Counted from the stretch's first letter, positions 2,785 through 22,573 are shown. The stretch: 23,717 bases of DNA from an uncultured Clostridia bacterium (GCA_937886445.1 CALGBY010000102.1:1-23717), one strand, 5' to 3'. The notes: a model not told the origin generated them from the letters alone. Translations and numbers: made by a program.

Positions 2785-2797
2785 TCTTTTTACCTGC

Positions 2798-2832
2798 AGG
2801 GGCCACAGGTTCATCCTATGGCCCCTTTTCTT
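2798..2832 (+). terminator. Intrinsic terminator or attenuator after the SBP fragment
   Basis: An 8-bp stem pairs AGGGGCCA (2798-2805) with TGGCCCCT (2819-2826), followed by TTTCTT. Confidence 0.6.
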
Positions 2833-2861
2833 ACCGGGTTGCTCATTTGAAGGTGAATCTA

Positions 2862-6511: not shown

Positions 6512-6546
6512 CCCTTTTCATAATGAACGCAAGGAGTGAAGAAAGC

Positions 6547-9531
6547 ATGATAAGACGGATGAGTGTCCTGCTCGCTGTTGTGATCCTTCTGACATCGGCG
6601 TCCGCGCTGGCTGTCACGGACAAGTCCATCGGGCAGTACGAGGATCTGGTGAGCACCTATTCCATCGATGCGTCGATTCCCTCCTATGACGAATACCTGA
6701 GCGCCCGCGGTGAAAACCGCCCGGAAAAGGTCATCGTGCTCGAGGGCGCGTCCTGCGCACGCTATGAGGAAGAGGGCGTGACCTCGCCCGTTATCCTGAG
6801 TAATTACGAGGGCATGGCGGGAGACGCGCTCCTCACCGGCGAGGAAGCGCTGGCGGAGTGGGAGTTCACCGTGGAGGAAGCGGGCTTATACGGCATTTCG
6901 CTTCTGTACTATCCCTACGAAGGCAAGAACTCGGAGATCCAGCGCGCCTTCTTTATCGACGGATGTCTTCCTTACGACGAGCTTTCCGTGGTGTCGTTTA
7001 CCCGTGTGTGGAGAAACGACCTCGCGAAGGGACTGTCCCGCGTGACGGATGAAAACGGCGTGGAGACCGTTCTGTGGCGCAGGGACAATCAGGGCAATGA
7101 CCTCAAGCCCTCGCCCGCCGAAGCACCCGAATGGGTAGAGGTACCGCTTTATGACAGCAACGGCTATGTCACGGACGAGCTGGGGGTCTATCTTGAGGAG
7201 GGTACCCATACCCTTACGATGCTCTCCCTGCGCGAACCCATGCTGGTGCGCTCCATCACCCTCAAAAATACGGACAGGCCCCTGCCTTACGCGCAGGTGA
7301 AACCGGAGAACACTTCCTCCGCGAAGGGCATCTGCGTGCGCATTGAGGCCGAAGCCGCGCAGAAGACCTCCTCCCAGATGCTCTATCCCGTGCAGGAGCA
7401 GGGCTCGGCGCGGGTGTATCCCTCGTCCGCGCGGTACCTGCTCAACAACACCATCGGCGGAAACGCGTGGAAAAACGCGGGTCAGTGGATCGAGTGGGAG
7501 TTTTCCGTGCCCGAGGAGGGCGACTACTGCCTGAGCTTCTACGACAAGCAGAATTTCGTGCGCGGCATCGACGTGTACCGCAAGATCTATGTGGACGGAA
7601 AGGTACCCTTTACCGAGTATAGCGCCCTGCCCTTCGGCTACGGCGCCAGCTGGCGCATGGAGACCGCCGCGGACGAAAACGGCGAGCCCTACCGCGTACA
7701 CCTTGCCTCAGGGGAGCACACCCTGCGCATGGAGGTCGTGCTGGGCGACATGGCGGACATCATCAGCCGCGTGCAGCAGTGCGTGCTGCAATTAAACGCC
7801 ATCTACCGTCAGGTGCTCTACATCACCGGCGTGTCCCCGGACGAAAACCGCGACTATCAGATCGAGCGCTACCTGCCGGCACTGGAGCAGGAGCTCATCG
7901 ATGTGCAGAACGACCTGCGCGCCGCCATCGCCATACTGGAGAAAACGGCGGGTCACAAGAGCGACAAGCTCACCGTCCTCAAGACCATGGACGACCAGCT
8001 GAGCGAGCTCATCGAGGACCGCGAGCGCTTTACCGAGGTGCTTTCTTCCTATAAAACAAATGTGCGCGCCTGCGGCAACTGGATCACGCAGGTGCTGCCC
8101 CAGCCCCTGCAGATTGACCGCATCTATGTGCACACGCCCGATGTGAAGCCGGAAAAGGACGGCTCCTTCGGAAGCGGTCTTCTGCACGAGGCGGAGCGCT
8201 TGTATAACTCCTTTGTCATCGATTACAACCGTGTCGGCAACATCGCCGAGACGGACGGGGACGGTACGGTCATCACCCTGTGGATCGGCACCGGCCGCGA
8301 TCAGGCAAATGTGATCAAGTCCCTGATCGATGAGCACTTTACGCCCGAAACCGGCATCAATGTGAATGTGCAGCTGGTGGACATGAGCACGCTTCTGCGC
8401 GCCACCCTGTCCGGAGAAGGCCCCGATGTGGCCATTCAGGTATCCGCCACCGGCGGCATCGCGGGCTCGGTCATGAACACCGGCAACGATACGCCCGTCA
8501 ACTACGGCCTGCGCCACGCGGTCATGGATCTCACCGTCTTCCCGGATTTTGACGAGGTCGCCGCGCGTTTTGCGCCCAGCGCTCTCGTGCCCTTCTCCTT
8601 TAACGGCGCCTCCTACGCGCTGCCCGACACACAGACCTTCCCGATGATGTTCTACCGGAAGGACATCCTCGCGGAAATCGGTCTTGCCGTGCCCGAAACC
8701 TGGGACGATGTGAAGGTCGCCATGAGCGTGCTCAACAAAAATCAAATGGAGTTCGGCATGCTCCCGGGCGAGCAGACCTTCGCGATGCTGCTGTTCCAGG
8801 CGGGTGGCGCGTATTACAGCGAAAACGGAGACCGCTCGGCACTGGATTCCGACATCGCGGTCAATGTGTTCTGCCGCTACTGCGAATTCTATACCGATTA
8901 CAAACTGGACGCGGCTACCTCCGTGGAGGAGCGCTTCCGCACGGGCGAGTGCCCGCTCATCATCGCGGACTACACCACCTACAATAACCTGCAGGTATCT
9001 GCCCCCGATATCAAGGGTCTGTGGGACTTCACCCATGTGCCCGGCACCGTGCGCGAGGACGGCAGCGTGAATACCGCCACCGGCTGCTCGGGCCTTGCCG
9101 ACATCATCATGAGCGCCACGGAGGAACCGGAGGCCTGCTGGGAATTCCTCAAATGGTGGACGGATGCAGAGACTCAGACGCTCTACGGTCGCGAGATGGA
9201 ATCCCTGATGGGCTCCTCCGCCCGCGTCGCCACCGCCAACATGGAAGCGCTTTCCAAGCTGTCCTGGCCTATCAAGGACTATAAGGAACTGTCCGCCCGC
9301 TTCGACAGCATCGTGGGCATCCCTCAGGTGCCCGGCGGCTACTACAGCTGGCGCAACGTGAACAACGCGTTCTACGCCGTCACCACGGACAACTCCAGCA
9401 AGGTAAGAAGTGAATCTGGCAACACGCCCCGCGAGGAGCTGATGGACAAGATCTATTACATCAACGCCGAAATCGACTACAAGCGCGCCGAATTCGGCCT
9501 GCTGCTCTACTCGGAAGGAGAGGAGGAATAA
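6547..9531 (+). CDS. Giant extracellular solute-binding protein: two CBM6/35-like modules, a helical segment and a family-1 SBP domain
   Basis: In frame with ORF 6427..9531. The start is set at ATG 6547 after AAGGAG, giving the signal peptide MIRRMSVLLAVVILLTSASALA. Module 1 spans nt ~6727-7264 (LEEGTHTLTM). Module 2 spans nt ~7327-7750 (RIEAEAA and LASGEHTLRM). The predicted helical region spans nt ~7750-8107. The SBP-like region spans nt ~8260-9531 (VITLWIGTGRDQ, FNGASYALPDTQTFPMMFYRKDIL, PETWDDV). Two permease genes follow immediately. Confidence 0.8.
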   Translation: MIRRMSVLLAVVILLTSASALAVTDKSIGQYEDLVSTYSIDASIPSYDEYLSARGENRPEKVIVLEGASCARYEEEGVTSPVILSNYEGMAGDALLTGEEALAEWEFTVEEAGLYGISLLYYPYEGKNSEIQRAFFIDGCLPYDELSVVSFTRVWRNDLAKGLSRVTDENGVETVLWRRDNQGNDLKPSPAEAPEWVEVPLYDSNGYVTDELGVYLEEGTHTLTMLSLREPMLVRSITLKNTDRPLPYAQVKPENTSSAKGICVRIEAEAAQKTSSQMLYPVQEQGSARVYPSSARYLLNNTIGGNAWKNAGQWIEWEFSVPEEGDYCLSFYDKQNFVRGIDVYRKIYVDGKVPFTEYSALPFGYGASWRMETAADENGEPYRVHLASGEHTLRMEVVLGDMADIISRVQQCVLQLNAIYRQVLYITGVSPDENRDYQIERYLPALEQELIDVQNDLRAAIAILEKTAGHKSDKLTVLKTMDDQLSELIEDRERFTEVLSSYKTNVRACGNWITQVLPQPLQIDRIYVHTPDVKPEKDGSFGSGLLHEAERLYNSFVIDYNRVGNIAETDGDGTVITLWIGTGRDQANVIKSLIDEHFTPETGINVNVQLVDMSTLLRATLSGEGPDVAIQVSATGGIAGSVMNTGNDTPVNYGLRHAVMDLTVFPDFDEVAARFAPSALVPFSFNGASYALPDTQTFPMMFYRKDILAEIGLAVPETWDDVKVAMSVLNKNQMEFGMLPGEQTFAMLLFQAGGAYYSENGDRSALDSDIAVNVFCRYCEFYTDYKLDAATSVEERFRTGECPLIIADYTTYNNLQVSAPDIKGLWDFTHVPGTVREDGSVNTATGCSGLADIIMSATEEPEACWEFLKWWTDAETQTLYGREMESLMGSSARVATANMEALSKLSWPIKDYKELSARFDSIVGIPQVPGGYYSWRNVNNAFYAVTTDNSSKVRSESGNTPREELMDKIYYINAEIDYKRAEFGLLLYSEGEEE

Positions 9532-9532: not shown

Positions 9533-10465
9533 ATGAACCGGACGGAAGCATGCCGCGCGCCCAAGCCACGCGAACTGACCCTGCGGCACGTCATCTGGAA
9601 AAACAGGGCGTCCTATCTGCTGATGGCTCCCTACTTCATTCTGTTTTTCCTGTTTACGGTCGTGCCGGTCATCATGTCCGTATACCTGTCCTTCACCTAT
9701 TTCAACATGCTGGAGCCGCCCTCCTTCGTGGGGTGGAGCAACTACATCAAGCTCCTTCTGGAGGACGATATCTTCATCATTTCACTACGCAACACGCTGA
9801 TCTTTGCCGTTGTGACGGGTCCGATCAGCTATCTGTTGTGCTTGCTGTTTGCGTGGATCATCAATGAGTTCAAGCCCCGCCTGCGCGCCGTGCTGACGCT
9901 GATCTTCTATGCGCCCTCCATCTGCGGCAACGCCTACATGATCTGGAACCTCATCCTGACCGGCGACCGCTACGGCTTTTTGAACGGCCTATTGCTGAAG
10001 CTGGACTTCATCAACGAGCCCATCCTCTGGATGCAGACGGAAAAATATGTGCTGCCCGTGCTGATCGTGGTGCAGCTGTGGCTGTCCCTCGGCACCGGCT
10101 TCCTCTCCTTTATCGCGGGTCTTCAGACCGTGGACAAGGGCATGTATGAAGCGGCGGCCATCGACGGCGTCAAAAACCGCTGGCAGGAGCTGTGGTATGT
10201 GACCCTGCCCGCCATGAAGCCGCAGCTGCTCTTCGGCGCGGTCATGCAGATCACGCAGTCCTTTGCCGTTGCCGATATCTCCATCAACCTCGCCGGAAAC
10301 CCCTCGGTCAACTACGCTGGCGCGACCATCGTGACGCACCTGTTGGACTACGGCTCCACACGCCTCGACCTCGGCTACGCGTCGGCCATCGCCACCATCC
10401 TGTTCCTGCTGATGGTCGGCACCAACAAGCTTGTTCAGAAGCTGCTGGGAAGGGTGGGTGAATAG
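9533..10465 (+). CDS. CUT1 ABC sugar permease, MalF/UgpA type (pair 1)
   Basis: The ATG lies 1 nt after the upstream stop, with RBS GGAGGAGGAA. Six TM segments are visible, plus the EAA loop MYEAAAIDGVKNRWQELWYVTLPAMKP. Confidence 0.9.
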   Translation: MNRTEACRAPKPRELTLRHVIWKNRASYLLMAPYFILFFLFTVVPVIMSVYLSFTYFNMLEPPSFVGWSNYIKLLLEDDIFIISLRNTLIFAVVTGPISYLLCLLFAWIINEFKPRLRAVLTLIFYAPSICGNAYMIWNLILTGDRYGFLNGLLLKLDFINEPILWMQTEKYVLPVLIVVQLWLSLGTGFLSFIAGLQTVDKGMYEAAAIDGVKNRWQELWYVTLPAMKPQLLFGAVMQITQSFAVADISINLAGNPSVNYAGATIVTHLLDYGSTRLDLGYASAIATILFLLMVGTNKLVQKLLGRVGE

Positions 10466-10466: not shown

Positions 10467-11396
10467 ATGAATACCACCGTAAAAAACAAGCCGGTCGACA
10501 ACCGTCCCGCAAAAATCATCAAACTTGAAAAGAAACTGAAGCATAAGGAAGGCGGCAAAAAGCTGAACCGCTCCGTCGCCGGAAACACCCTGCTGTTCGT
10601 CCTCATGGGCATCTGCGGCGTGTTCATGGTGCTGCCTCTGGTGATGATCGTCAATAACGCATTGAAGCCCCTTGACGAAATCTACCAGTTCCCGCCCCGC
10701 ATCTTCGTGCGCAACCCCACGCTTTCAAACTTCACCGACCTCTTCGTGCTGCTCAACGAAAGCTGGGTGCCTTTCTCCCGCTACATCTTCAACACCATCA
10801 TCATCACCGTGGGCGGCATGGTGGGTCATGTGGTCGTGGCGTCCATGGCGGCTTACCCCCTTGCCAAGCACAAGTTCCCCGGCAAGGCGCTGCTGTTCTC
10901 CATGGTGGTGCTGTCCATGATGTTCTCCTGGACGGTCACGCAGATCCCCCAGTATCTCATCATTTCGTGGCTGGGCATCAACAATACCTACGCCGCCCTC
11001 ATCCTGCCCGCATGGGCGTCCGGAATGGGTCTGTACCTCATGAAGCAGTTCATGGAGCAGCTGCCCGACTCCCTCATGGAGAGCGCGCGCCTGCAGGGCG
11101 CGAACGAGTGGCAGATCTTCTGGCAGATCGTGATGCCCAATGTGCGTCCCGCGTGGCTCACGCTGGCCATCTTCCAGTTCCAGTCCATGTGGGGCAACAC
11201 CGGCGGCATGTTCCTGCGCAATGAGGAACTCAAGCCCCTGCAGTACGCCCTGTACCAGATCACCTCGGGCGGCGTTGCCCGCGCGGGCGCGGGCGCGGCG
11301 GTCAGCTTCATCATCGCCGCCATCCCGATTACATTCTTCCTCATCTGCCAGAGCTCCATTCTGGAAACCATGACCACCTCGGGCATGAAGGATTAA
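10467..11396 (+). CDS. CUT1 ABC sugar permease, MalG/UgpE type (pair 1)
   Basis: In frame with ORF 10431..11396. The start is set at ATG 10467, 1 nt after the upstream stop. EAA loop: LMESARLQGANEWQIFWQIVMPNVRP. Confidence 0.9.
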   Translation: MNTTVKNKPVDNRPAKIIKLEKKLKHKEGGKKLNRSVAGNTLLFVLMGICGVFMVLPLVMIVNNALKPLDEIYQFPPRIFVRNPTLSNFTDLFVLLNESWVPFSRYIFNTIIITVGGMVGHVVVASMAAYPLAKHKFPGKALLFSMVVLSMMFSWTVTQIPQYLIISWLGINNTYAALILPAWASGMGLYLMKQFMEQLPDSLMESARLQGANEWQIFWQIVMPNVRPAWLTLAIFQFQSMWGNTGGMFLRNEELKPLQYALYQITSGGVARAGAGAAVSFIIAAIPITFFLICQSSILETMTTSGMKD

Positions 11397-11408: not shown

Positions 11409-12887
11409 ATGAAGTGTAAGAAACTGCTCTGCCTGCTGCTCCTTGTGTGCCTGCTGCCTTCCTGCGCGCTGGCAAACGACACGCTGCCCTACGACTGCTA
11501 TAACTACGATTACTGGAACAATATCCTCTATACTCCGGCTCCCTATGTGCCGGACGGCAGCATTTCCGGCGATACACTCCTGTGGAACGAAAGTCCTTTG
11601 GGCGCGTTCCGCTCCCCGCAGGATCTGTGCGTATCCCCGGATGGGTCGGTCTACATCGCCGATACGGGCAACAACCGCGTGGTCGTCGTGGACAGCGACC
11701 TCAAAACCGTGCTGCGCGTCATCGACGGCTTTATGGCGGACGGCAATCGGGAGACCTTCTCCTCGCCCACGGGCGTGGCGGTCTCCCGCAAAGGTCAGCT
11801 GTATGTGGCCGACACCCAGAACCACCGCATCGTGGTGCTGGAACAAGACGGCTCCTTCGTGAAATATGTGGATAACCCCGTGAGCGAGGTGCTGGAGGAG
11901 GGCTATGTGTTCACGCCCCTCAAGGTGTCTGTCGACTACGCGGACCGCGTCTACTGCATCGCCCGCAACATGTTTCAGGGCATCATGGTGTTCACCGCGG
12001 AGGGCGACTTCACGGGCTTTTTCGGAACCATCGAGGTAAAGATCACCCTGTGGGAAAAGTTCTGGCGGAAAATATCCACCAAGAAGGAACGCTCCAAGCA
12101 GCTGCTGTTCATTCCCACCGAGTTTACCGGCATCGATGTGGACGAGGAGGGCTTCGTCTACGCATCCAACAAGGACACCGAGGGCGTGCAGGCCGTGCGC
12201 CGCCTGAACCCCAAGGGACAGGATGTCATCCGCAAGGGCATCAAGGAAAATCTTGGCGGAGACCTCGTATTCGGTACGCTGGGCACCTACGCGGGTCCCA
12301 GTCAGATCGTGGACGTGGTGTACCGCGACCACGGCATCTATTCGCTGCTGGACGCGCGCCGCGGCAGGATATTCACCTACGACCACGAGGGGAATTTTTT
12401 GTATATCTTCGGCGGCATCGGAACCCAGGAAGGCACCTTCCACACGCCCGCCGCCATCGAGCAACTGGGAAACCGTCTGCTGGTGCTGGATTCCCGTCAG
12501 GCGAACATCAGCATTTTCACAGAGACGGAGTACGGTTCCCTCATCAACCGCGCCGTGGCTCTGCGACACAGCGGCGATGAGACGCTGGCTGTGCCGCTGT
12601 GGAACGAGGTGCTCCGGCTGGATGAAAACAACGAGTTGGCCAACTCCGGCATCGGCAAAGCGTATCTTTCCGCGGGCGATAACGAAAAGGCCATGACTTA
12701 CCTGCGCCGCGGCATGAACCGTGCCTACTATTCAGTGGCGTTCAAGAGATGGCGCAATGAGGCGCTGCGCGACAACATCAGCTGGGTGCTGACCGGGCTC
12801 ATTGTCGTCATTGCGGTAGTCATCATAGTGAAAAAGATCGTTTTGCCCAAAATCGGAAAAAAGAGAAAAAGGGGGGAAGAGTCGTGA
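11409..12887 (+). CDS. Membrane-tethered NHL-repeat beta-propeller protein with a TPR-like segment and C-terminal TM anchor
   Basis: The signal peptide is MKCKKLLCLLLLVCLLPSCALA, with a possible LPSC lipobox. Six NHL-like units are visible, for example SPQDLCVSPDGSVYIADTGNNRVVVVD and SPTGVAVSRKGQLYVADTQNHRIVVLE. A helical TPR-like stretch (NSGIGKAYLSAGDNEKAMTYLRRG) follows. The C-terminal TM helix is VLTGLIVVIAVVIIV, followed by a KKRKRG-rich tail. Confidence 0.8.
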   Translation: MKCKKLLCLLLLVCLLPSCALANDTLPYDCYNYDYWNNILYTPAPYVPDGSISGDTLLWNESPLGAFRSPQDLCVSPDGSVYIADTGNNRVVVVDSDLKTVLRVIDGFMADGNRETFSSPTGVAVSRKGQLYVADTQNHRIVVLEQDGSFVKYVDNPVSEVLEEGYVFTPLKVSVDYADRVYCIARNMFQGIMVFTAEGDFTGFFGTIEVKITLWEKFWRKISTKKERSKQLLFIPTEFTGIDVDEEGFVYASNKDTEGVQAVRRLNPKGQDVIRKGIKENLGGDLVFGTLGTYAGPSQIVDVVYRDHGIYSLLDARRGRIFTYDHEGNFLYIFGGIGTQEGTFHTPAAIEQLGNRLLVLDSRQANISIFTETEYGSLINRAVALRHSGDETLAVPLWNEVLRLDENNELANSGIGKAYLSAGDNEKAMTYLRRGMNRAYYSVAFKRWRNEALRDNISWVLTGLIVVIAVVIIVKKIVLPKIGKKRKRGEES

Positions 12888-13516
12888 GCAAGGCATTCAG
12901 CAAGGAAAAATGGAAGTACCTGCTTTATACGGCAGGGCACCCCAATGACGGCTTTTACTGGATCCGTCATCAGGATCGAGGCAGCGTGCCCATCGCCGTG
13001 CTGCTGGTGATCCTCTACTCCGTGTGCTTCTCCATGAACCGCATTTACGCGGGCTTCGTGGTAAACGACATCAATCCCCGCTCGGTCAACTCCATCGCAG
13101 AGTTGGGAGGCGTGGCGATTTTGTTCATGGTGCTATGCGCCGGCAACTGGTCGGTCACCTGCCTCATGGAAGGCGAGGGACGCTTCAAGGATATCGTCAT
13201 CGCCATCGGTTATTCTCTTCTGCCAATGATCATCGGCACGGTGTTGGCAACCTTCATTTCGCAGCTCGTTGCCGAAAACGAGGAAGCATTTTACTCCATC
13301 GTCATGGGCATCGGCACGGCGTATACGGTCATCATGATGCTCACAGGAATCATGCAGATACACAATTATACTCTGGGAAAGACGCTTGTAACGCTCCTGC
13401 TCACGGTGATCGCCGTGTTCATTATCATATTCCTTGCGCTGCTCATCGTGAACTTTTTGACTCAGGTCTACAGCTTCCTGAGAAACATCTACATCGAGCT
13501 TGTATTCCGCTTTTAA
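12884..13516 (+). CDS. Yip1-domain-like integral membrane protein (5 TM)
   Basis: The GTG start overlaps the upstream stop (GTGA, 12884-12887). It is 210 aa, with a short cytoplasmic N-terminus followed by five hydrophobic helices. This topology and size are typical of bacterial YIP1-family proteins. The assignment rests on topology and recollection, not on an HMM. Confidence 0.65.
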   Translation: MSKAFSKEKWKYLLYTAGHPNDGFYWIRHQDRGSVPIAVLLVILYSVCFSMNRIYAGFVVNDINPRSVNSIAELGGVAILFMVLCAGNWSVTCLMEGEGRFKDIVIAIGYSLLPMIIGTVLATFISQLVAENEEAFYSIVMGIGTAYTVIMMLTGIMQIHNYTLGKTLVTLLLTVIAVFIIIFLALLIVNFLTQVYSFLRNIYIELVFRF

Positions 13517-13530
13517 GGAGGGACGGAAAT

Positions 13531-16128
13531 ATGGCGAAAACGGAGAACGCGGCCGGTCTGCCGCCTCGTGTAAAGCGGATTTTGTGGATGATGTTGGTCG
13601 CCGCGATGATCCTCGTGGTCGTACTGATCGTCAGATATGTGTTCCGCTACATGAAGTACGATGCCTATAAAGAGATCATCCAGCCGCCCGTATCCTACGA
13701 TGAAGGGAGCGCTTTCACACCGCTCAAGGATGAGCTGAAGGCTGTTAAGGGCTTTGTTCCCGCAGCGGAAAACGAGAAGATGATCCTATATTTCAATCAG
13801 AAAACGGCGGAGGTTGCTCTGTATGACAAGGAAAGCGGCATCACCGTCTACTCCAATCCGCAAGACGCGGACAAGGACCCCGTGGCGCGCGCTGGCAATC
13901 TGGAGAATTTGAAAAGCCAGTTCATCCTCTCTTATCTGGACGGCAATGCCAAGGAGGGAACAGCGTGGAATTCCTACGCCAAGTCCGTCGAGAGCGGTCA
14001 GATGTCCTGTGAGAAAATCGAAAACGGCGTGCGCGTCATCTACAATCTGTCCAATGAAAAGCTGCTTCTGGTGCCAGACGTGCTTACGCAGGAATGGTAC
14101 GAGATGTTCATTAACGCCGGCAAAAAGCAGGCGAAAAAATCCTACGTTCTGAACGACGAAATGGGCCTGTACGAACTCAAGACGCAGGGTGTCACAGCCC
14201 GCAATCGTCAGCAGATTGACGCGGACGCTCGTGAGGCGGGCTTCACCATGGCTGATTACGAGCAGATGCAGGCCTTGCTCCCGCCCGCCGAGGACGCGGA
14301 GGGGCAGACGGAGACTCTTTCCTTTACCGTGACGCTGGACTGGATCCTGACGCCTGACGGAATCGAGGTTACCATTCCTTATGAGGGGTTGGGCGAGTTC
14401 GGAAACGGTAAGATCCGCGCCATTCAGCTCCTGCCCATGTTCGGCGCGGCGGGCGCGGATGAGACGGGCGAAATAGTGATTCCGGAGGGCAGCGGCGCGC
14501 TGATCCGTTTCAATAACGGAAAGTCCGCTTCCGCGCAGTACAACAAGAACATCTACGATCTGGACCCCGTGGACAGCGATCTGACTGCGCTCCAGAACCA
14601 GCAGACCGTGCGCCTGCCCATCATTGGCATCTGCCGGGAAAATTACTCACTGCTCGCCACCTGTGAGCGGGGCGCGTCGCTCGCGGCTATCGTCGCCGAT
14701 GTCGCGGGGCGCAACAACAGTTACAATTACGCTTACTTCACTTTCTCTCTGCGCCGCACCGATACCCTGACCATCTCTGGTGAAAGCGTGATCGTGGCGG
14801 AAGAAGACCTGTATCCCGTGGATCTCAGGGTGCACTATGAGATTATCCCAAAGGATGCGGGCGGCTACGTAGACATTGCCCGCACCTACCGCGAAAGCCT
14901 GATCGAATCGGGTGCGCTCGAGCGCGAGACGAACGCTGCGGGGGACATCCCCTTCTACTGTGACGTCATCGGTGGCGTCAAGGAAACGGCGCACATCGCT
15001 GGTATTCAGTATCTGCGTCTGCTGCCCATGACCACCTTCGCCGAAGCGGGGGAGATGATGGATGAGCTCGGGAAGATGGGCATCACGAACCGAAGAATGA
15101 ATTTGCAGGGCTGGATGAACGGCGGATACTACCATGATCCGGTCCGAAAAACCAAGGTGATCGGCAAGCTGGGCGGCGAAAAAGGACTCGCCTTACTGAT
15201 CGAGAAAGAAAATCTTTCGGGCGGCAAAGTCTACCCCGACGCCGCCATACAGCAGGTATCCGACATCGCCAAAGGGTTTACGGCCGGCGGCGAGGCATCC
15301 CGCTACTACGCGCAGGGTTACGTGGTCAATCTTGCCCGCGTGAGCCCGGTGTCCCTGCGCCGCACGGACACAATGGGCTACAAGGAACTGGGCTATAAAC
15401 TGCTGTCTCCCAAGTTCCTGCCGCGCTATGCGAAGGCGCTTTCGGAAGAAGCGGAGGAGCTGCAACTTACAGCCCTGTCATTGCGTGACCTCGGGAACGA
15501 TCTGCACGCGGACAAGCGCCGCACCGAGGTCATCAACCGCGAGTACGCGCTGGATCTGGTGAAGGATGCCTTTCAAACCCTTTCCGCGAACGGGCGGGAC
15601 ATTCTCGTTACGGGCGGCAATGACTACTGCTTCCCCTATGTATCGGATGTCATCGGAGCGCCGCTCAGCGCCACGTCCTATCCTATCCTCGATGAGCAGA
15701 TTCCACTGTGGGAAATGATTGTGCACGGCTCCGTTTCCTACGCCGGAAATCCCATCAACATGACCCAGAGCGAAGACAGGCGCGTGGACCTGCTGCGATT
15801 CATCGACTACGGCGCGTCCGTGCGCTACACCTTCACGTGGCGGGATGCCGCGGAAATGAAGTACACCGGACTCAACAGCAGCTACGCCACTACCTTCTCT
15901 TCGTGGAAGGAGCAGGCAGCGGAGGATTATGCCTTTGTGAACGGCGCACTTAAATACGTTTCCGGCGCGGCTATGATAAATCACGCGCGGCTTTCGGACA
16001 CTTTGACGCGCAGCGATTACTCGAACGGAATCAGCATTTATGTAAACACGGGCGATGCGTTCGCTTCGGCGGACGGATACACGGTAGCGCCCTATTCCTA
16101 TCTGGTCACGGGAGGTGAGGCGCAGTGA
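13531..16128 (+). CDS. Type-II membrane-anchored large ectoprotein of unknown function (possibly DUF5696-like or glycosidase-like)
   Basis: In frame with ORF 13024..16128. The start is set at ATG 13531 after AAGGAGGGA, because the upstream part of the ORF overlaps the Yip1-like gene in another frame. The N-terminal TM is ILWMMLVAAMILVVVLIV. The N-half is beta-rich. The C-half alternates beta/alpha-like segments (FYCDVIGG, LQGWMNGGYYH, LSLRDLGNDLHAD, ILVTGGNDY, IPLWEMIVHG). I could not assign any characterised family motif. Confidence 0.7.
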   Translation: MAKTENAAGLPPRVKRILWMMLVAAMILVVVLIVRYVFRYMKYDAYKEIIQPPVSYDEGSAFTPLKDELKAVKGFVPAAENEKMILYFNQKTAEVALYDKESGITVYSNPQDADKDPVARAGNLENLKSQFILSYLDGNAKEGTAWNSYAKSVESGQMSCEKIENGVRVIYNLSNEKLLLVPDVLTQEWYEMFINAGKKQAKKSYVLNDEMGLYELKTQGVTARNRQQIDADAREAGFTMADYEQMQALLPPAEDAEGQTETLSFTVTLDWILTPDGIEVTIPYEGLGEFGNGKIRAIQLLPMFGAAGADETGEIVIPEGSGALIRFNNGKSASAQYNKNIYDLDPVDSDLTALQNQQTVRLPIIGICRENYSLLATCERGASLAAIVADVAGRNNSYNYAYFTFSLRRTDTLTISGESVIVAEEDLYPVDLRVHYEIIPKDAGGYVDIARTYRESLIESGALERETNAAGDIPFYCDVIGGVKETAHIAGIQYLRLLPMTTFAEAGEMMDELGKMGITNRRMNLQGWMNGGYYHDPVRKTKVIGKLGGEKGLALLIEKENLSGGKVYPDAAIQQVSDIAKGFTAGGEASRYYAQGYVVNLARVSPVSLRRTDTMGYKELGYKLLSPKFLPRYAKALSEEAEELQLTALSLRDLGNDLHADKRRTEVINREYALDLVKDAFQTLSANGRDILVTGGNDYCFPYVSDVIGAPLSATSYPILDEQIPLWEMIVHGSVSYAGNPINMTQSEDRRVDLLRFIDYGASVRYTFTWRDAAEMKYTGLNSSYATTFSSWKEQAAEDYAFVNGALKYVSGAAMINHARLSDTLTRSDYSNGISIYVNTGDAFASADGYTVAPYSYLVTGGEAQ

Positions 16129-17045
16129 ACGCACAGAAGAAAAGACGCTTCCGCATCACCTTTGAGCAGAGAAACGCTCTGCGCGGCTACGGGTTCATCC
16201 TGCCTTGGCTCATCGGCTTTCTGGTGTTCTATGTGGGCTGCCTTGTACAACTAGGCCGTTTCAGTGTGATGGACATCAAAATCGACGCAGTCACCGGCAC
16301 ACGCATTGATACCTTTGTGGCGTTTGAAAACTACATTACCGCCTTCACGGCTCATGCGAGCTTCAAGCAGACGCTTACCTCGTCCCTCGTCGACATGGTC
16401 ATCGATCTGCCGCTCATCATCTTCTTCTCGCTGTTCGTGGCGCTGCTTCTGAACCGCAGGTTCAAGGGCAGAGCGCTTGTGCGCGCCATCTTCTTCCTGC
16501 CCATTATACTGGGCGCGGACGCGGTAGGCGCTGCCATCACGAGGGCGACGGAACTGATCAATAACGGCGTTTCTGCCGAGGCGGCGGAAATGGCGGGCGG
16601 GGGAACGGTTTCGGTGAGCTATTACATCGCCCTGTTCGGCGACCTCGCTCTTCCACCCAAGGTGCTCGATTATCTGGTCGGTGCGGTCAACCGCATCGCC
16701 TCCATCATTCAAGGCTCGGGCGTGCAAATTATTCTGTTCATCGCCGCACTGCAGTCCATTCCCGGCTCCCTTTACGAGGTGGCCAAAATCGAGGGCGCGA
16801 CCGGCTATGAGACGCTGTGGAAGGTGACGGTACCGATGGTGATGCCGCACATCATCACCAACACGATCTACACGCTCGTGGACCGCTTCACGGTGAGTGA
16901 TGTCGTTACGCTCGCCGCAGACACCTACCAGAAGTATAACTACGGGCTTTCATCCGTGTTCTCTCTGGTATCCACGCTTGCCACGATTCTGATTCTCGGC
17001 ATCATCGTATACCTGCTCAACAAGCGGGCGTTCTACTACAATTAA
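16125..17045 (+). CDS. CUT1 ABC sugar permease, MalF/UgpA type (pair 2)
   Basis: The GTG start overlaps the upstream stop (GTGA, 16125-16128). EAA loop: LYEVAKIEGATGYETLWKVTVPMVMP. There is an extended extracytoplasmic loop before the EAA-bearing helix pair. Confidence 0.88.
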   Translation: MNAQKKRRFRITFEQRNALRGYGFILPWLIGFLVFYVGCLVQLGRFSVMDIKIDAVTGTRIDTFVAFENYITAFTAHASFKQTLTSSLVDMVIDLPLIIFFSLFVALLLNRRFKGRALVRAIFFLPIILGADAVGAAITRATELINNGVSAEAAEMAGGGTVSVSYYIALFGDLALPPKVLDYLVGAVNRIASIIQGSGVQIILFIAALQSIPGSLYEVAKIEGATGYETLWKVTVPMVMPHIITNTIYTLVDRFTVSDVVTLAADTYQKYNYGLSSVFSLVSTLATILILGIIVYLLNKRAFYYN

Positions 17046-17058: not shown

Positions 17059-17997
17059 ATGGAAAAGACAAACGTGAATCTGTCCCTCGACCGCAAAAGC
17101 CGCGCGGTGAACAACACGAAGAATACCCTCATGGGTATCTTCCGCTTCATCATCATTGTCGGCATCAGCTACGTGATTCTGGCGCCTGTCATCGGAATTA
17201 TCAGCAGATCGTTTTTCTCCCGTCAGGATTCCATCAATCCCATGGTGTTCACCATCCCGATCAATCCCACATTTGATCGCTACGTGATGGCAGTCAAGTA
17301 CCTGGATTATTTCCCGGTACTGGGAAGAACGCTCCTGTACGTGGGCGGTATCACGCTCATTCAGCTGCTCGTCTGCTCCATGGTGGGCTACGGCTTCGCG
17401 CGCTACAATTTCCCCTTCAAGAAGCTGCTGTTTGGCTTCATCGTGGTGATGATCGTGGTGCCGCTCAACACCATCCAGTTCCCGCTGTATATGACCTTCC
17501 GCTATTTCGGCGTAGGGGAGAAGACGCTGAACCTGCTTAAGACCCCGTGGCCCACGGTCATTCTATCCGTGTTCGGCTGCGGACTCAGGTCGGGCCTGTA
17601 CATCTACATCTTCAACCAGTTCTTCCGCGGTCTTCCCAAGGAGATTGAGGAAGCAGCACTGGTGGACGGCGCGGGCTCCTGGTACACCTACTTCCGCATC
17701 ATGCTGCCCAACGCTGCGCCCGCCATGATTACCGTGGCAGTGTTCTCCATCGTGTGGCAGTACAACGATTCCTTCTTCGCCAACACCTTCAATATCTCGG
17801 ATTCCATCATCCTGACCCGCAAGCTGGATTCCCTCATCAACATGATCGCCAACGCGGAGAAGATCCTCACCATCTCCGAGCAGCAATTGTACTTTGATGC
17901 GGGTGTGGTACTCACGCTCCTGCCCGTAGTCGTTATCTATCTGGTGCTGCAGCGCCGCTTTATCGAGGGCGTGGAACGCTCCGGTATCGTGGGCTGA
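17059..17997 (+). CDS. CUT1 ABC sugar permease, MalG/UgpE type (pair 2)
   Basis: RBS AAGGGGGA precedes ATG 17059. EAA loop: IEEAALVDGAGSWYTYFRIMLPNAAP. Six TM segments are visible. Confidence 0.9.
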   Translation: MEKTNVNLSLDRKSRAVNNTKNTLMGIFRFIIIVGISYVILAPVIGIISRSFFSRQDSINPMVFTIPINPTFDRYVMAVKYLDYFPVLGRTLLYVGGITLIQLLVCSMVGYGFARYNFPFKKLLFGFIVVMIVVPLNTIQFPLYMTFRYFGVGEKTLNLLKTPWPTVILSVFGCGLRSGLYIYIFNQFFRGLPKEIEEAALVDGAGSWYTYFRIMLPNAAPAMITVAVFSIVWQYNDSFFANTFNISDSIILTRKLDSLINMIANAEKILTISEQQLYFDAGVVLTLLPVVVIYLVLQRRFIEGVERSGIVG

Positions 17998-18055: not shown

Positions 18056-19789
18056 ATGAGAAAATTCCTTTCCTGGCTGGTGATTGCCGCTCTGGCAGTC
18101 ACTATGTGCGCGTTTGCCGCAGCGGAAACGGAAGCAGCCGGCAAGATCGACTTTGCCGACGGCACTTTCGCTTTCCTGGGCCTTTCCATGGCCAAGGGCA
18201 ACGCGGACGCATCCACCGAGCTTTCCGTCGTTGATTATCAGGGCGGCAAAGCGCTGAAGGTCCTGTCCAAGGGCAAGGTCCCCTATGTTGCCTTCAACAT
18301 CGAGGGTCTGCTGGGCGACAAGCTGTCTGATGTGCGCGCCATCAGCGTCACCTTCGGTATCGACGAGAAGGGCCCCAACGGCAAGTTCTTTGCCGCTTCC
18401 GGCGCCGTCTACACCTACACCGGCGAAGAGAACGCGGAAACCAAGCATGAGTGGAGCGTTTATCTGGCCAAGAAGAACCCCCGCACCATCGTGACCGCCC
18501 TGAAGGACGGCGAGGTGTTCGTGCCCGGCATGGGCAACACCCTCGTGATCTCCAAGGAGACCGATAACTGCCAGACCGCCACCGGCACGCCCCTTGCGCT
18601 GTATCTGACGGACATCGCGTTCCTTGACGCCGAAGGCAACGCTCTCCCCGTGGACCTCACCGCGGAGTATGTGAGCGCCGACACCGGCCGCGACACCTCC
18701 AACCTGTTTGCTCTCAGCAACACCGTCGATTTCGCGGGCTTCACCACCACCGGCGGCGGTTGGGGACAGAGCGGCTTTGACTGGGATGCTGCCGCCCTTG
18801 AGGCGCTGGTACCCGGCACCGCCATCGAGATCGAGTACGAGTCCGAGGACGGCTCCATGTGGGTCGTGTTCCCCGACGCCGCGGCCGGCTGGAGCCGCAT
18901 CGCGCAGGATGCCGCATACATCAACGGCAGCAAGAACATTGCGCAGATCACCTACGAGCAGATCGCCGAGAAACTGGGCGAAGACAAGACTGCCTGGGGC
19001 GGACGCCTCCAGTGCGAAGCCAAGTCCAACTGGACCGTCTTCTCCGTGAAGGTCGGTACCTGCGCTCATAACCTCACCCTCGCGAATGCCGTCGAGTTCC
19101 CCGGCTTTGAGGCCTCCGCGGGCGGCTGGAGCCAGAGCGGCTTCAACTGGGACGAGGCAGCCCTTGCGGCACTGGTTCCCGGCACCGCCATCGAAGTGAA
19201 CTTTGAGTCCGAAGACGGCTCCATGTGGGTCGTGTTCCCCGACGCGGCAGCCGGCTGGAGCCGCATCGCACAGGGCGAAGCTGCCATTCAGGGCGGTAAG
19301 GCCTACATCACCTACGAGCAGATCGCCGAAAAACTGGGCGAGGACAAGAGCGCCTGGGGCGGACGCCTCCAGTGCGAAGCCAAGTCCAACTGGACCGTCT
19401 ACGGCGTCACCATCGGCAAGCTCATTGAGCTTCCCGCCGTCAACAACATCGTGGAGTTCGCGGGCTTCGAGGCCTCCGCGGGCGGCTGGAGCCAGAGCGG
19501 CTTTGACTGGAACACCGCGGTGCTGGATGCGCTCAATCCCGGTAGTGCCCTCATCATTACCTTTGAATCTGAAGACAACTCCATGTGGGCCGTGTTCCCC
19601 GATGCAGCGGCCGGCTGGAGCCGTATCGCGCAGGATGAAGCCATCATCAGCGGCGGCAAAGCCTACATCACCTACGAGCAGATCGCCGCGAAGGTCGGCG
19701 AAGACAAGGCCGCTTGGGGCGGACGCCTCCAGTGTGAAGCCAAATCCGCTTGGACCGTGTACGGCGTAGCCGTCGGCCAGGTGAAGTAA
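18056..19789 (+). CDS. Secreted non-catalytic protein: N-terminal beta-sandwich-like domain plus three tandem ~120-aa modules (putative glycan-binding)
   Basis: RBS AAAGGAGG. The signal peptide is MRKFLSWLVIAALAVTMCAFAAA. The N-terminal domain of ~190 aa looks like a CBM. Three repeats follow, each containing GGW.QSGF.W, ESED.SMW.VFPDAAAGWSRIAQ, ITYEQIA and WGGRLQCEAKS.WTV. No LPXTG, SLH, dockerin or TM anchor is present. Confidence 0.8.
   Translation: MRKFLSWLVIAALAVTMCAFAAAETEAAGKIDFADGTFAFLGLSMAKGNADASTELSVVDYQGGKALKVLSKGKVPYVAFNIEGLLGDKLSDVRAISVTFGIDEKGPNGKFFAASGAVYTYTGEENAETKHEWSVYLAKKNPRTIVTALKDGEVFVPGMGNTLVISKETDNCQTATGTPLALYLTDIAFLDAEGNALPVDLTAEYVSADTGRDTSNLFALSNTVDFAGFTTTGGGWGQSGFDWDAAALEALVPGTAIEIEYESEDGSMWVVFPDAAAGWSRIAQDAAYINGSKNIAQITYEQIAEKLGEDKTAWGGRLQCEAKSNWTVFSVKVGTCAHNLTLANAVEFPGFEASAGGWSQSGFNWDEAALAALVPGTAIEVNFESEDGSMWVVFPDAAAGWSRIAQGEAAIQGGKAYITYEQIAEKLGEDKSAWGGRLQCEAKSNWTVYGVTIGKLIELPAVNNIVEFAGFEASAGGWSQSGFDWNTAVLDALNPGSALIITFESEDNSMWAVFPDAAAGWSRIAQDEAIISGGKAYITYEQIAAKVGEDKAAWGGRLQCEAKSAWTVYGVAVGQVK
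18713..19786 (+). repeat. Three in-frame tandem coding repeats (periods 366 and 360 nt)
   Basis: The units span about 18713-19078, 19079-19438 and 19439-19786. The GAC(GGC/AAC)TCCATGTGGG landmark recurs at 18848, 19214 and 19574. Units 1 and 2 share long identical runs, for example CCTGGGGCGGACGCCTCCAGTGCGAAGCCAAGTCCAACTGGACCGTCT. Confidence 0.9.
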
Positions 19790-19868
19790 TAAAGGGCCTT
19801 TCTATATGACAGCAGCGCCGCCCCGCGCGACGCACAAGGAACAATTCGATTCTAAGGAGGATCATTCA

Positions 19869-21391: not shown

Positions 21392-22573
21392 ATGGATGTC
21401 CGTCAAATCAGGGAGCAGCTTACCCAAACGATCATTCCCTTCTGGAAAAATCAAATCGATACCGTAAACGGCGGCTACACCGGGTTCATGGGCTTTGACC
21501 TCAAAAAGGACTTGTCCGCCCCTAAGGGCTGCATCCTGAACAGCAGGATATTGTGGTTCTTCTCCGAAGCGGCCATCACGCTTGATGACCCCTCGCTCAT
21601 TCCCTATGCCGACCATGCCTACCGCATGCTCATCCGCATGACGGACGAGGCGCGCGGCGGCGTTTACTGGTCCGTGAACGCGGACGGTACCGTCTGCGAC
21701 GGCACCAAGCACACCTACAATCAGGCGTTCGCGGTGTACGCCCTGTCTGCCTACTACCGCCTGACGGGCAGAAAAGAGGCGCTCGACCGCGCCGCGCAGC
21801 TGTACCGGATCATTGAAACCTACTGCCGCGACGAGGGCGGATATCTGGAGGCCTTCACCGCGGACTGGAACATCGAAAGCAATGAGAAGCTCTCCGAAAA
21901 CGGCGTCATGGCGGAGCGCACCATGAACACGCTCCTGCACGTCATGGAGGGCCTGACCGCGCTGTATGAAGTCTGGCCCGACGCGGGTCTGCTCGCTCAC
22001 CTCATCGAAATACTGGATATATTCAAAAATAAGATTTATAGTGCGGATAAACGCCGTCAGGAAGTGTTTTTTGATCATGAGTACAACACGCTCATCGACC
22101 TGCACTCCTACGGGCACGATATCGAAACCTCCTGGCTCATGGAAAAGACGCTGACCGCGCTGGGGGACGAAGCGCTGACGGGCGAAATCAGGCCGCTTCT
22201 CATCTCCCTTGCCGAAAAGACCTATGAGACCGCCTTCACGGAGAACGGCTTCCTCAACGAGTGCGAGAAGGGCGTCAACAACACCGAACGCGTCTGGTGG
22301 ATCCAGGCCGAGGCGCTGGTCGGCTTCCTTAACGCCTTTGAAAAGACGGGGGACGGGAAGTTCCTGCGCGCCGCGGAAAGCCAGTGGGCGTACATCCGCG
22401 ACCACATCGCCGATCCCCGCGCGGGCTCCGAGTGGTACTGGTCCGTCTCCGAGGACGGCACGCCCGACGCGTCTCAGCCCATCGTCAGCCAGTGGAAATG
22501 CCCCTATCACAACGGCAGAATGGCCTTCGAGGTCATCGAAAGGAGCAAGCATGAAAAGCTATCCGCAGATTGA
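21392..22573 (+). CDS. AGE-superfamily cellobiose/mannobiose 2-epimerase
   Basis: 393 aa, cytoplasmic, with RBS GGGAGGT. It reads like the (alpha/alpha)6-barrel epimerases. Motifs seen: [83 protein letters not shown] and [10 protein letters not shown]. It pairs with a GH130_1 gene, as in the known mannan pathway. Confidence 0.9.

Follow-up and report, generated by a model that had tools for sequence, protein, structure and literature searches.

We found that three consecutive genes, encoding an NHL-TPR protein, a Yip1 protein and a DUF5696 protein, are an uncharacterized addition always found alongside a single type of ABC sugar importer in Clostridia that degrade plant fibre. They lie in a 23,717-nucleotide stretch of DNA (the window) from an uncultured Clostridia bacterium (GCA_937886445.1 CALGBY010000102.1:1-23717). 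On balance, we lean toward the view that the trio is a conserved accessory module, extracytoplasmic and membrane anchored, that belongs to a single clade of CUT1 ABC importers for sugars. It is best read as a surface complex at the service of these importers, as an earlier note on the window had proposed.

Three coupled genes in a beta-mannan operon

All window genes described here are on the plus strand. The NHL gene (11409..12887) encodes 492 residues comprising an NHL beta-propeller, TPR-like helices and a C-terminal transmembrane (TM) helix. The Yip1 gene (12884..13516, GTG start) encodes a 210-residue protein with five TM segments, and the DUF5696 gene (13531..16128, ATG start) an 865-residue type II anchored ectoprotein. 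ORF analysis revealed GTGA stop/start overlaps between NHL and Yip1 (12884-12887) and between DUF5696 and permease B1 (16125-16128), as well as a 14-nt spacer between Yip1 and DUF5696 (13517-13530) preceded by an AAGGAGG-type ribosome-binding site. The three genes, both overlaps and the gap given by the earlier note were thus exactly reproduced, and Pfam searches confirmed the identities of the three products and the presence of BPD_transp_1 permeases on either side of them.

The operon runs in the order GH130, CBM35-GH26, cassette, CBM65 protein, second solute-binding protein (SBP), epimerase and second GH130, and the whole cassette is its uptake core. A promoter-like site at 3863-3891 (TTGACT-17-TATAAT, 11/12 matches) precedes the GH130 mannoside phosphorylase-like gene (3991..5016; Pfam GH130, E=5e-70). 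The conserved cassette begins with a CBM35-GH26 beta-mannanase (5042..6511; Pfam), followed by a giant SBP of ~1000 residues (6523..9531; probable start ATG 6523 or 6547). The latter carries SBP_bac_1 and SBP_bac_8 matches at residues 630-920, and the ~560 residues ahead of this domain gave no Pfam match. Permeases A1 (9533..10465; BPD_transp_1) and A2 (10467..11396; BPD_transp_1, E=1.1e-16, probable ATG start at 10467) lie upstream of the trio. Downstream are permeases B1 (16125..17045; BPD_transp_1) and B2 (17059..17997; BPD_transp_1, E=1.3e-17, and synteny). They are followed by a secreted protein (18056..19789) with an N-terminal domain without assignment and three CBM65 modules (CBM65_1, E=4.6e-64, three stretches), and by the second SBP, SBP2 (19869..21242; SBP_bac_1, probable start MKRF at 19869). 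The cellobiose/mannobiose 2-epimerase-like gene (21392..22573) belongs to the GlcNAc_2-epim family and matches NCBIfam EpiA at E=4e-90, which is below the curated cut-off. The second GH130 gene (22590..23717; Pfam, approximate start) runs off the window end and is 75% identical to the GH130 of locus L088.

This locus follows the same enzymatic logic as published beta-mannan loci of Firmicutes such as Roseburia intestinalis and Faecalibacterium prausnitzii, in which an extracellular GH26 and ABC import feed an intracellular epimerase/GH130 phosphorylase route. To our knowledge, the published loci encode a single transporter, whose SBP is a lipoprotein, and a GH36 inside the cell, and they contain no NHL/Yip1/DUF5696 module, giant SBP or CBM65 protein. 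NHL, DUF and CBM65 go unmentioned in a 2026 paper on how gut Bacillota use mannan.

The trio is the fixed centre of one importer cassette

In 80/80 related genome loci, the trio lay in a cassette of fixed order: GH26, giant SBP, A1, A2, NHL, Yip1, DUF5696, B1, B2, CBM65 protein and SBP2. DUF5696 was followed by permease B1 in 80/80 genome loci and in all 8 loci of distant subfamilies. NHL, Yip1 and DUF5696 were adjacent in 75 of the 80 loci, and a fused NHL-Yip1 gene preceded DUF5696 in 2; in the remaining ones, the contig end was reached or overlapping ORF calls blurred the order. NHL and Yip1 were present wherever the contig extends that far, and the full 8-gene core was found in 59 loci. 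GH26 lay upstream of the giant SBP in 58/80 loci, most others stopping at a contig end, and the CBM65 protein came after permease B2 in 69/80. The junctions are conserved as well: the NHL/Yip1 overlap was kept in 79% and the DUF5696/B1 overlap in 70% of loci, and the median Yip1-DUF5696 gap was 16 nt. NHL and Yip1 are fused into one polypeptide in at least four lineages (L013, L001/L024, L086, L090 and P0384). Such an arrangement is far beyond chance, and the trio was co-inherited with CUT1 permeases in all loci examined.

The 8 distant loci (25 to 31% identity) kept the order DUF5696-B1(-B2), together with NHL and Yip1 wherever upstream DNA was identifiable. Their minimal unit consists of an NHL-Yip1 pair (in some cases one fused protein), DUF5696, permeases of the B type and an SBP. 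Both the giant SBP and the A permeases are absent from three of the distant loci (L086, L089 and L090). By BLASTP, B1 orthologues from five distant loci were 36 to 48% identical to B1 versus ~25% to an A-type permease. It is the downstream B pair to which the trio is specifically tied. The earlier note had pictured the trio as wedged between two complete permease pairs; rather than lying between two independent transporters, it is the fixed centre of one cassette. The mannan-specific reading also had to be given up, since the distant loci neighbour pectate lyase/GH2, PL9-like, GH31/GH130, GH31 or GH38 genes, or none, and the module thus occurs in pectin-type, GH31-type, GH38-type and CAZyme-free loci.

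A related arrangement is found in Caldicellulosiruptor bescii, where Athe_0174-0181 comprise xloEFG, an NHL repeat protein named X, a putative extracellular GH129 and axoFGE (PMC8579813). Xylan and Avicel induce all of these genes together, with XynR/AraR as regulators, and no function is given there for X or the GH129 (PMC8579813). By annotation, the operon has the same gene order as the window (SBP, two permeases, NHL protein, GH129, two permeases, SBP), although its context is xylan rather than mannan. Athe_0177/0178 are therefore probably homologous to the window proteins, and because a single gene separates the A permeases from the GH129, NHL and Yip1 are presumably fused in this organism.

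The NHL-TPR and Yip1 proteins are candidate scaffold components

Pfam detected the NHL repeat at E=1.6e-19, and the TPR match was subthreshold (TPR_2, E=6.5e-5; 23 bits versus a cut-off of 27). Hydropathy analysis placed an N-terminal signal segment at residues 6-24 and the TM helix at 460-478, with the basic tail of ~14 residues inside and the ectodomain outside. The six blades claimed earlier are plausible: the best Foldseek matches of a fused NHL-Yip1 homologue were six-bladed NHL domains, but the homologue model itself is of low confidence (pLDDT 58.6) and poor in the middle blades. The Yip1 domain was matched at E=3.2e-15, in a protein with five hydrophobic segments by hydropathy.

YknW of the Bacillus YknWXYZ system is likewise a bacterial Yip1-family membrane protein encoded beside an ABC transporter, and it is reported to modulate the assembly of YknXYZ (PMC4887032). 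The two proteins share a Pfam domain. YknXYZ, however, is an exporter of the MacB type that works with a membrane-fusion protein, whereas the window encodes a CUT1 importer, and the Yip1 protein of the trio has an NHL propeller as its partner or fused to it. By analogy, NHL-TPR and Yip1 could make up a scaffold in the membrane and assemble there with the permeases.

Among the extracellular parts of the cassette, the membrane-anchored, extracytoplasmic NHL propeller is conserved best, which would also fit a ligand sensor gating or regulating the importers. The kinase PknD, with its NHL sensor domain, offers a comparison. We consider this role very improbable for the NHL-TPR ectodomain: Pfam detected neither a kinase, HTH or GGDEF domain nor any other output domain in the three proteins, the cytoplasmic tail is only ~14 residues long, and related loci carry their regulators as separate LacI or AraC genes.

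DUF5696 is a remote homologue of GH129 enzymes

The 865-residue protein matched Pfam DUF5696 at E=3e-178, and a full-text literature search for "DUF5696" found no paper, in agreement with the statement of the earlier note that it knew of no functional study. The AF2 model (pLDDT 85.5, pTM 0.84) predicts an N-terminal beta-sandwich, a (beta/alpha)8-type barrel and a C-terminal beta domain. Its best Foldseek matches were the GH129-like DagB (5opq, E=4e-33) and NagBb, an alpha-N-acetylgalactosaminidase of family GH129 (5wzn, E=2e-28), with weaker matches to GH101 (~1e-16 to 1e-18) and to GH36 and GH31 (~1e-11 to 1e-12). Profile homology was also detectable: the DUF5696 family profile found NagBb among PDB sequences at E=0.008, hhalign aligned residues 433-847 with a full-length GH129 homologue at 96.7% probability, and NagBb-like fragments scored 57 bits on the Pfam DUF5696 model (cut-off 25.6). 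As judged from profiles and the predicted fold, the protein is a remote GH129/GH101-fold alpha-glycosidase homologue.

NagBb and DagB share the three-domain architecture of DUF5696 (target-normalised TM-score 0.68-0.71) at ~14-15% identity; DagB is a 3,6-anhydro-D-galactosidase, whose domain layout we took from PMC5698469. Motifs common to DUF5696 and GH129 include GW..GY after strand 2 and PL[YW]..[VI].H at 725-732, and R670 corresponds to Arg451 of the GH129 homologue (hhalign). Unlike these enzymes, DUF5696 has an extra N-terminal region of ~220 residues and a TM anchor, NagBb being cytoplasmic (PMC7232152).

The alignments further indicate that DUF5696 has not kept the canonical catalytic pair of GH129 intact. 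Nothing in DUF5696 corresponds to E478, the acid/base of NagBb, which falls in an insertion missing from DUF5696, between G695 and G696 (hhalign). D653, the presumed nucleophile equivalent, lies where barrel strand 4 ends. It is invariant in 40/40 and 29/29 mannan-type orthologues, but 7/18 wider-family representatives have R, N, Y, H, T or S instead, and hhalign puts the nucleophile of NagBb at S650, three residues off, an assignment of low confidence. The missing acid/base alone does not mean that DUF5696 is inactive, since DagB, in which only the nucleophile of NagBb is retained, is an active enzyme (PMC5698469). Family-wide invariant residues are D345, D/E478, W528, D661, R670, D721, N743, E759 and K777, the acidic residues D/E478, D661, D721 and E759 differing from those of NagBb and DagB. 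Conserved only in the mannan subfamily are K484, H488, N524, Q526, Y533, Y534, H535, D536, Q574, E588, Y592, Y593, R652, D653, H659, K662 and R664. In the barrel, the invariant acidic and polar residues cluster where the strands have their C-terminal ends, suggesting a working pocket. The protein, in which the earlier note had found no characterized CAZy motif, thus does have characterized relatives, although its fit to GH129 is not clean.

Hydropathy showed a single N-terminal TM segment (16-34). Its flanking charges are ambiguous in the window protein (+2 on both sides), but 58 family members average +3.9 on the N-flank and -0.6 on the C-flank, and 52/58 are predicted N-in, which supports a type II ectoprotein with an outward-facing ectodomain. 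In one distant homologue, a cleavable signal peptide takes the place of the anchor.

Could DUF5696 simply work on its own at the cell surface, as an alpha-galactosidase taking the branches off galactomannan oligosaccharides, with NHL and Yip1 as unrelated neighbours? Its nearest folds (GH129, GH101, GH36 and GH31) are all retaining alpha-glycosidases, Pfam found no GH36 or GH27 gene within the window whose missing function it could supply, and D653 is invariant in mannan-type orthologues. We nevertheless regard this as improbable. The same coupled three genes occur in the non-mannan loci described above and, by annotation, in a xylan locus; NHL and Yip1 are never missing where visible; and the NagBb acid/base is absent. 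Moreover, NHL and Yip1 are better conserved than DUF5696. Of all cassette members, DUF5696 evolves fastest (median identity 43%), compared with 46% for SBP2, 49% for the CBM65 protein, 62 to 63% for NHL and Yip1 (62% for NHL in mannan-type loci) and 80% for the A permeases (81% for A1). Its rapid divergence, the residues conserved only in the mannan subfamily and the outward-facing ectodomain all hint that DUF5696 has a substrate-specific role.

Binding proteins without lipid anchors

In all of the ~65 giant SBP orthologues, from every lineage, we found an AxA-type signal peptide and no lipobox cysteine; the mature N terminus is conserved (VSTYSI[DN]xSIPxY). In the lineage of the window, a lipobox is likewise missing from SBP2 and from the CBM65 protein, whereas both are ordinary lipoproteins in Lachnospiraceae, where the trio is unchanged. 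This bears on the earlier idea that the trio replaces sortase, SLH or dockerin anchoring. The giant SBP without lipobox in every lineage gives this idea circumstantial support; against it, the trio is kept with lipoprotein binding proteins and in loci without a giant SBP.

A rival reading is a non-catalytic docking platform that would keep the giant SBP, joined in this lineage by SBP2 and the CBM65 protein, beside the permeases at the membrane, DUF5696 being a pseudo-glycosidase lectin or scaffold. NHL propellers and TPR-like helices are typical interaction modules, and the canonical catalytic residues are not kept across the DUF5696 family. For the same two reasons that weigh against an anchoring substitute, and because the invariant strand-end residues of DUF5696 suggest a working pocket, we find such a platform, in either form, rather doubtful.

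A proposed accessory module for glycan import

In the accessory module that we favor, the unit comprises the NHL-TPR propeller, Yip1, the DUF5696 ectoprotein, the dedicated permease pair B1/B2, with B1 coupled translationally to DUF5696, and an SBP, to which many versions, including that of the window, add the upstream giant nonlipidated SBP with its own permease pair A. We infer that these proteins form a physical complex. The GH129-like ectodomain would bind incoming oligosaccharides at the outer face, probably trim them, and hand them to the SBP and permease B. In mannan loci, the most obvious candidate reaction is the release of galactosyl side groups in alpha linkage. The pocket residues of DUF5696 would vary by subfamily, in parallel with the type of glycan that characterizes the locus.

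The trio encodes NHL, Yip1, and DUF5696 proteins in a CUT1 importer setting

The three-gene layout claimed in the earlier note was borne out when open reading frames (ORFs) and junctions were read from the raw sequence. All three genes lie on the + strand and encode proteins of 492 aa (NHL, 11409-12887), 210 aa (Yip1, 12884-13516, GTG start), and 865 aa (DUF5696, 13531-16128). The first two overlap in a GTGA at 12884-12887, an AAGGAGG ribosome-binding site stands at the upstream edge of the 14-nt spacer between the second and the third, and the next gene, encoding the permease permB1 (B1) on the same strand, has its GTG start at 16125. The names "NHL / YIP1 / DUF5696" mentioned in that note were right as well: the proposed Pfam search of the three proteins assigned exactly these families.

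Upstream of the trio, the window holds a group II intron, a short SBP-like ORF with a lone permease, a GH130, a CBM35-GH26 protein, a solute-binding protein of ~1000 aa (giant SBP, 6523-9531), and permeases A1 and A2, in this order. After the trio come permeases B1 and B2, a three-module CBM65 protein, a second solute-binding protein (SBP2, 19869-21242), an epimerase, and a second GH130. With four BPD_transp_1 permeases and two SBP_bac_1/8 proteins, the setting is that of CUT1 importers. No ATPase gene was found in the window; CUT1 importers of Firmicutes usually depend on a shared MsmK-type ATPase encoded elsewhere. The msmK gene of C. bescii has been described as encoding such an ATPase (PMC8579813). 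The locus is an ABC-importer glycan locus of a known kind, joined by a previously undescribed three-protein accessory module.

A promoter/terminator scan gave no terminator signal above chance inside the cluster, a result that fits a single transcript as well as several. A promoter-like site of the sigma-70 type (TTGACT-17-TATAAT, 11/12 consensus matches) was observed at 3863-3891, ~100 nt upstream of GH130. The group II intron (113-1943) is complete, with Rfam matches RF02001 (113-306), RF01998 (346-427), and RF00029 (1873-1943) and a reverse-transcriptase/maturase ORF at 365-1909. Beside it, the segment 2074-3719 holds a 236-aa SBP-like ORF with its own signal peptide and a match confined to the SBP_bac_8 model's C-terminal half, followed by a single permease gene (2727-3719); the two look like what is left of a third ABC system.

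The trio belongs to a fixed transporter cassette

A scan for relatives, with one genome per species, gave 302 loci encoding a relative; the best 80 were kept, and their ORFs were assigned by BLASTP to the window proteins and counted. Close and mid-distance DUF5696 homologues on long contigs showed an identical ten-gene order. The co-occurrence with CUT1 permeases that the earlier note had proposed to survey was complete among these best 80 of 302 loci, permB1 directly following DUF5696 in 80/80. NHL, Yip1, and DUF5696 were adjacent in 75 of the best 80, NHL and Yip1 being fused in 2, while in the rest a contig end cuts the locus or overlapping ORF calls blur the order. The full core (giant SBP, A1, A2, NHL, Yip1, DUF5696, B1, and B2) was present in 59 of these 80 loci, a GH26 gene 5' of the giant SBP in 58, and a CBM65 protein gene 3' of permB2 in 69. 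The junctions were kept too: NHL and Yip1 overlap in 79% of the loci (median, -4 nt), and DUF5696 and permB1 in 70%, by exactly 4 nt in 57%. Between Yip1 and DUF5696, the median gap is 16 nt; spacing is looser at the CBM65 and SBP2 genes. It is very likely that the trio is functionally linked to the importer.

Among the labels of the best 80 of the 302 loci are Christensenella, Candidatus Limiplasma, Aristaeellaceae, Oscillospiraceae, "Faecalibacterium sp.," Lachnospiraceae, Anaerocolumna, and Mobilitalea, and the loci include one of the isolate Clostridium sp. KNHs205 (L076). A complete Firmicute-type cassette also stands on two contigs whose labels read "Alloprevotella sp." and "Bacteroidaceae bacterium" (L032 and L047), which points to mis-binning or horizontal transfer. 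Two assemblies labelled uncultured Faecalibacterium sp. each have two mannan-type cassettes on different contigs (L026/L043 and L028/L040).

Fold and profile evidence places DUF5696 remotely within the GH129/GH101 superfamily

The DUF5696 protein matched PF18952 with 594.6 bits (cut-off, 25.6; E = 3e-178), residues 259-857 covering model positions 16-612 of 612. Its AF2 model, built from a 40-sequence alignment (pLDDT 85.5, pTM 0.84), has the fold of GH129: an N-terminal beta-sandwich, a (beta/alpha)8-like barrel, and a C-terminal beta domain. Foldseek against the PDB retrieved the GH129-like 3,6-anhydro-D-galactosidase DagB (5opq; E = 4e-33) and NagBb, an alpha-N-acetylgalactosaminidase of GH129 (5wzn; E = 2e-28, target-normalised TM-score 0.70, identity 14-15%), followed by GH101 endo-alpha-GalNAc-ases (~1e-15 to 1e-18) and by GH36 and GH31 (~1e-11 to 1e-12).

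In phmmer, the single 865-aa sequence had no match among the PDB sequences, and a profile of the C-terminal 300 residues gave only chance matches in the PDB (nsp8 and phycocyanin). The DUF5696 family profile reached NagBb among the PDB sequences at E = 0.008, and hhalign aligned DUF5696 with NagBb or a GH129 homologue at 92-97% probability. With the wide family profile and a full-length GH129 homologue, the value was 96.7% over residues 433-847; this homologue came from a scan of gut metagenome contigs, as a search with a 142-aa NagBb fragment had given only gene fragments. The Pfam DUF5696 model itself scored 57 bits on NagBb-like fragments (cut-off, 25.6). Fold, profile, and hhalign evidence thus identify DUF5696, at the level of sequence and model, as a remote member of the GH129/GH101 superfamily rather than an orphan, and the 865-aa protein, in which the earlier note could find no characterised CAZy motif, does have characterised relatives.

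Hydropathy indicates one N-terminal transmembrane (TM) segment, and flanking charges in 58 family members point to an inside N terminus and an outside position of the large domain. In one distant homologue, a cleavable signal peptide takes the place of the anchor.

Structure prediction and Foldseek had been suggested as a way to find a barrel with a pair of conserved acidic residues. The barrel was found, and one acidic residue has a candidate, D653; a counterpart of the acid/base was not found. In NagBb, the nucleophile is D435 and the acid/base E478 (PMC5698469). D653 lies at the end of the strand equivalent to barrel strand 4 of NagBb, 20 residues after LP.Y (21 from AP.Y to D435 in NagBb), and is invariant in the mannan subfamily; by motif spacing in sequence and model, it should be the counterpart of D435. 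With low confidence, hhalign pairs D435 with S650, three residues earlier, and position 653 is not Asp in 7/18 members of the wider family. As for E478, the Glu pair (SSSEEV) of the GH129 homologue falls, in the hhalign alignment, into an insertion between G695 and G696, next to N697 and a nonconserved D/A698. D698, at the end of strand 5, was considered as the acid/base and ruled out, since only 25/40 close homologues have Asp there and most of the wider family has Ala. DagB keeps only the nucleophile of NagBb and is still an active enzyme (PMC5698469); the absence of E478 in DUF5696 is therefore no proof of inactivity.

The family invariants are D345, D/E478, W528, S626, D661, R670, P711, D721, P725, N743, E759, K777, H818, and N839, and the shell around them is conserved only inside the mannan subfamily. 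Such a pattern would be expected of a family of enzymes or lectins that share one mechanism but have several specificities. Within the cassette, DUF5696 also evolves fastest, with a median identity to the window of 43%, compared to 46% for SBP2, 49% for the CBM65 protein, 62-63% for NHL, Yip1, and the giant SBP, and 80-81% for the A permeases. Judged by its residues, catalysis by DUF5696 is uncertain. Its fold would suit a stand-alone alpha-galactosidase, a reading that seems to us quite improbable.

The NHL and Yip1 proteins are membrane proteins, and Yip1 has a precedent beside an ABC transporter

The NHL protein matched the Pfam NHL repeat (E = 1.6e-19, 69 bits), two stretches passing alone, and its TPR matches were sub-threshold. 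Hydropathy shows a signal segment and, towards the C terminus, a TM helix; the C-terminal tail is basic. An SGL (SMP-30/gluconolactonase) match (31.8 bits; cut-off, 26.3) covers only residues 73-159, and the "gluconolactonase" names of NHL homologues at NCBI are automatic annotations. NCBIfam gave only sub-threshold ScyF-type NHL matches for this protein and none for Yip1 and DUF5696. The Yip1 protein has five hydrophobic segments by hydropathy and matches PF04893 (E = 3.2e-15, 56.9 bits; cut-off, 28.6) over model positions 6-172 of 173.

The existence of natural NHL-Yip1 fusions places the N terminus of Yip1 in the cytoplasm. The AF2 model of one such fusion, P0384, has a pLDDT of 58.6 and is confident only in about blades 1-2 and 5-6; its alignment was shallow, every sequence except the window Yip1 row sharing at least 69% identity with P0384. 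The best Foldseek matches of this low-confidence model were the six-bladed TRIM/Brat NHL domains (target-normalised TM-score, ~0.58). A nearly invariant basic amphipathic insert, TIEVKITLWEKFWRKISTKKERSKQLLFIPTEF, was noticed in the propeller at residues ~211-243 (window 12040-12140); it is modelled at very low confidence and could be a membrane-contact or partner-contact element. The Yip1-family protein YknW modulates the assembly of an ABC transporter and is thus a bacterial precedent for a Yip1-family protein working with such a transporter (PMC4887032).

Anchoring of the binding proteins varies by lineage

None of the giant SBP orthologues (window ~6523-9531; L006-L085) has a lipobox. They start with an AxA-type signal peptide followed by a conserved mature N-terminal motif, Y.E.VSTYSI[DN].SIP.Y, and the ~560 residues after this motif had no Pfam match. 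Lachnospiraceae (L039, L045, L048, and others) have SBP2 and the CBM65 protein as lipoproteins, each with a long low-complexity linker; their counterparts in the window's lineage (window 18056-21242) have plain signal peptides and are not lipoproteins. That non-lipidation of the binding proteins tracks the presence of the trio was ruled out, since lipidation varies by lineage whereas the trio does not.

From their sequences, these anchoring differences make a docking role for the trio possible and do not single it out. A trio acting purely as a noncatalytic docking platform would suit a giant SBP devoid of a lipobox and would leave the GH129 fold of DUF5696 without a catalytic role; we judge it unlikely.

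The module predates the mannan cassette and has a wider range

An exhaustive search with the DUF5696 profile found 5939 clusters (50% identity) at E ≤ 0.001 and 3523 at E ≤ 1e-30. We viewed eight distant representatives (L086-L090 and L171-L173), whose DUF5696 is 25-31% identical to that of the window. L086, which neighbours a pectate lyase and a GH2, has an NHL-Yip1 fusion, DUF5696, B1, B2, and an SBP, and is without giant SBP and A permeases. The same five genes are found in L090, with a GH38 nearby, and DUF5696, B1, B2, and SBP in L089, whose contig begins at DUF5696 and has a GH31 nearby. L087 holds the full double cassette and a PL9-like beta-helix protein, and L088 the full cassette with GH31, epimerase, and GH130. 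In L171 and L172, the full double cassette has no adjoining CAZyme gene, the neighbours in L172 being serine dehydratase and pyruvate:ferredoxin oxidoreductase; DUF5696 would be the only glycosidase-like protein of these units. L173, a short contig, is consistent with the same pattern. In L088, a DUF624 membrane protein is encoded at 2134-2769, directly 5' of the giant SBP gene; DUF624 is an uncharacterised family that often adjoins CUT1 transporter genes.

In BLASTP, the B-type permeases of the five loci L086-L090 were 35-52% identical to window B1/B2 and ~22-27% identical to the A pair. Being nearer to B1/B2, they show that the trio travels with the B transporter, a unit to which the giant SBP and the A pair are frequently added. 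The position between two permease pairs is no rule, the A pair being absent in L086. Nor is the trio confined to mannan loci: it also accompanies pectate lyase, PL9-like, GH31, and GH38 proteins or stands without an adjoining CAZyme. Its occurrence is wider than that of the mannan cassette, which it also predates.

Discussion

In Gram-positive fibre degraders, how extracellular depolymerisation is connected with ABC import is far less well known than for the Sus-type systems of Bacteroidota. Our literature search found no paper naming DUF5696 and, in main texts, nothing on Yip1 and NHL with ABC, on NHL repeats together with mannan, or on Athe/Csac locus tags. In C. bescii, a xylan-locus operon is listed as xloEFG-X-GH129-axoFGE; the syntenic protein is annotated GH129, Athe_0174 to Athe_0181 are all induced on xylan and Avicel, and the regulon study gives no function for X or GH129 (PMC8579813). 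By annotation and gene order alone, this operon has the same architecture as the window. The co-induction of the trio with its neighbours that the earlier note had asked for is thus seen on xylan and Avicel in a counterpart whose homology rests on annotation and synteny only (PMC8579813). GH129, GH130, and CBM35 proteins also appear together in a Paenibacillus proteome (PMC4867992).

The interpretation in the earlier note holds up in part. We lean towards a trio that serves one specific clade of CUT1 importers as an extracytoplasmic accessory complex, in which the GH129-like subunit would process or hold glycan on an NHL-TPR/Yip1 scaffold, and we consider this somewhat probable. If true, it may point to a new activity, with a specificity so far unrecognised among GH129-like proteins. 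A further-reaching arrangement, which we regard as rather unlikely, would make the cassette a single membrane supercomplex: the scaffold would join one or two translocators, the non-lipidated giant SBP, and the enzyme, so that a GH129-like ecto-enzyme is built into the ABC importer and trimming and uptake are physically coupled. In Gram-positive bacteria, such a supercomplex would correspond to the "selfish" uptake by enzyme plus SusCD in Bacteroidota, and it would have been re-used for glycans such as mannan, xylan, and pectin.

The module is experimentally accessible, the same architecture being present in the cultured Clostridium sp. KNHs205 (L076) and in C. bescii, which is genetically tractable. 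It is common and widespread in Clostridia (rumen and gut Christensenellales-like bacteria, Oscillospiraceae, and Lachnospiraceae) and, by annotation, occurs in Caldicellulosiruptor. It may account for the two permease pairs and for a 1000-aa binding protein without lipid anchor. The module serves loci for different glycans, and if it is an enzyme-plus-scaffold importer subunit, it would define a new class of ABC importer architecture.
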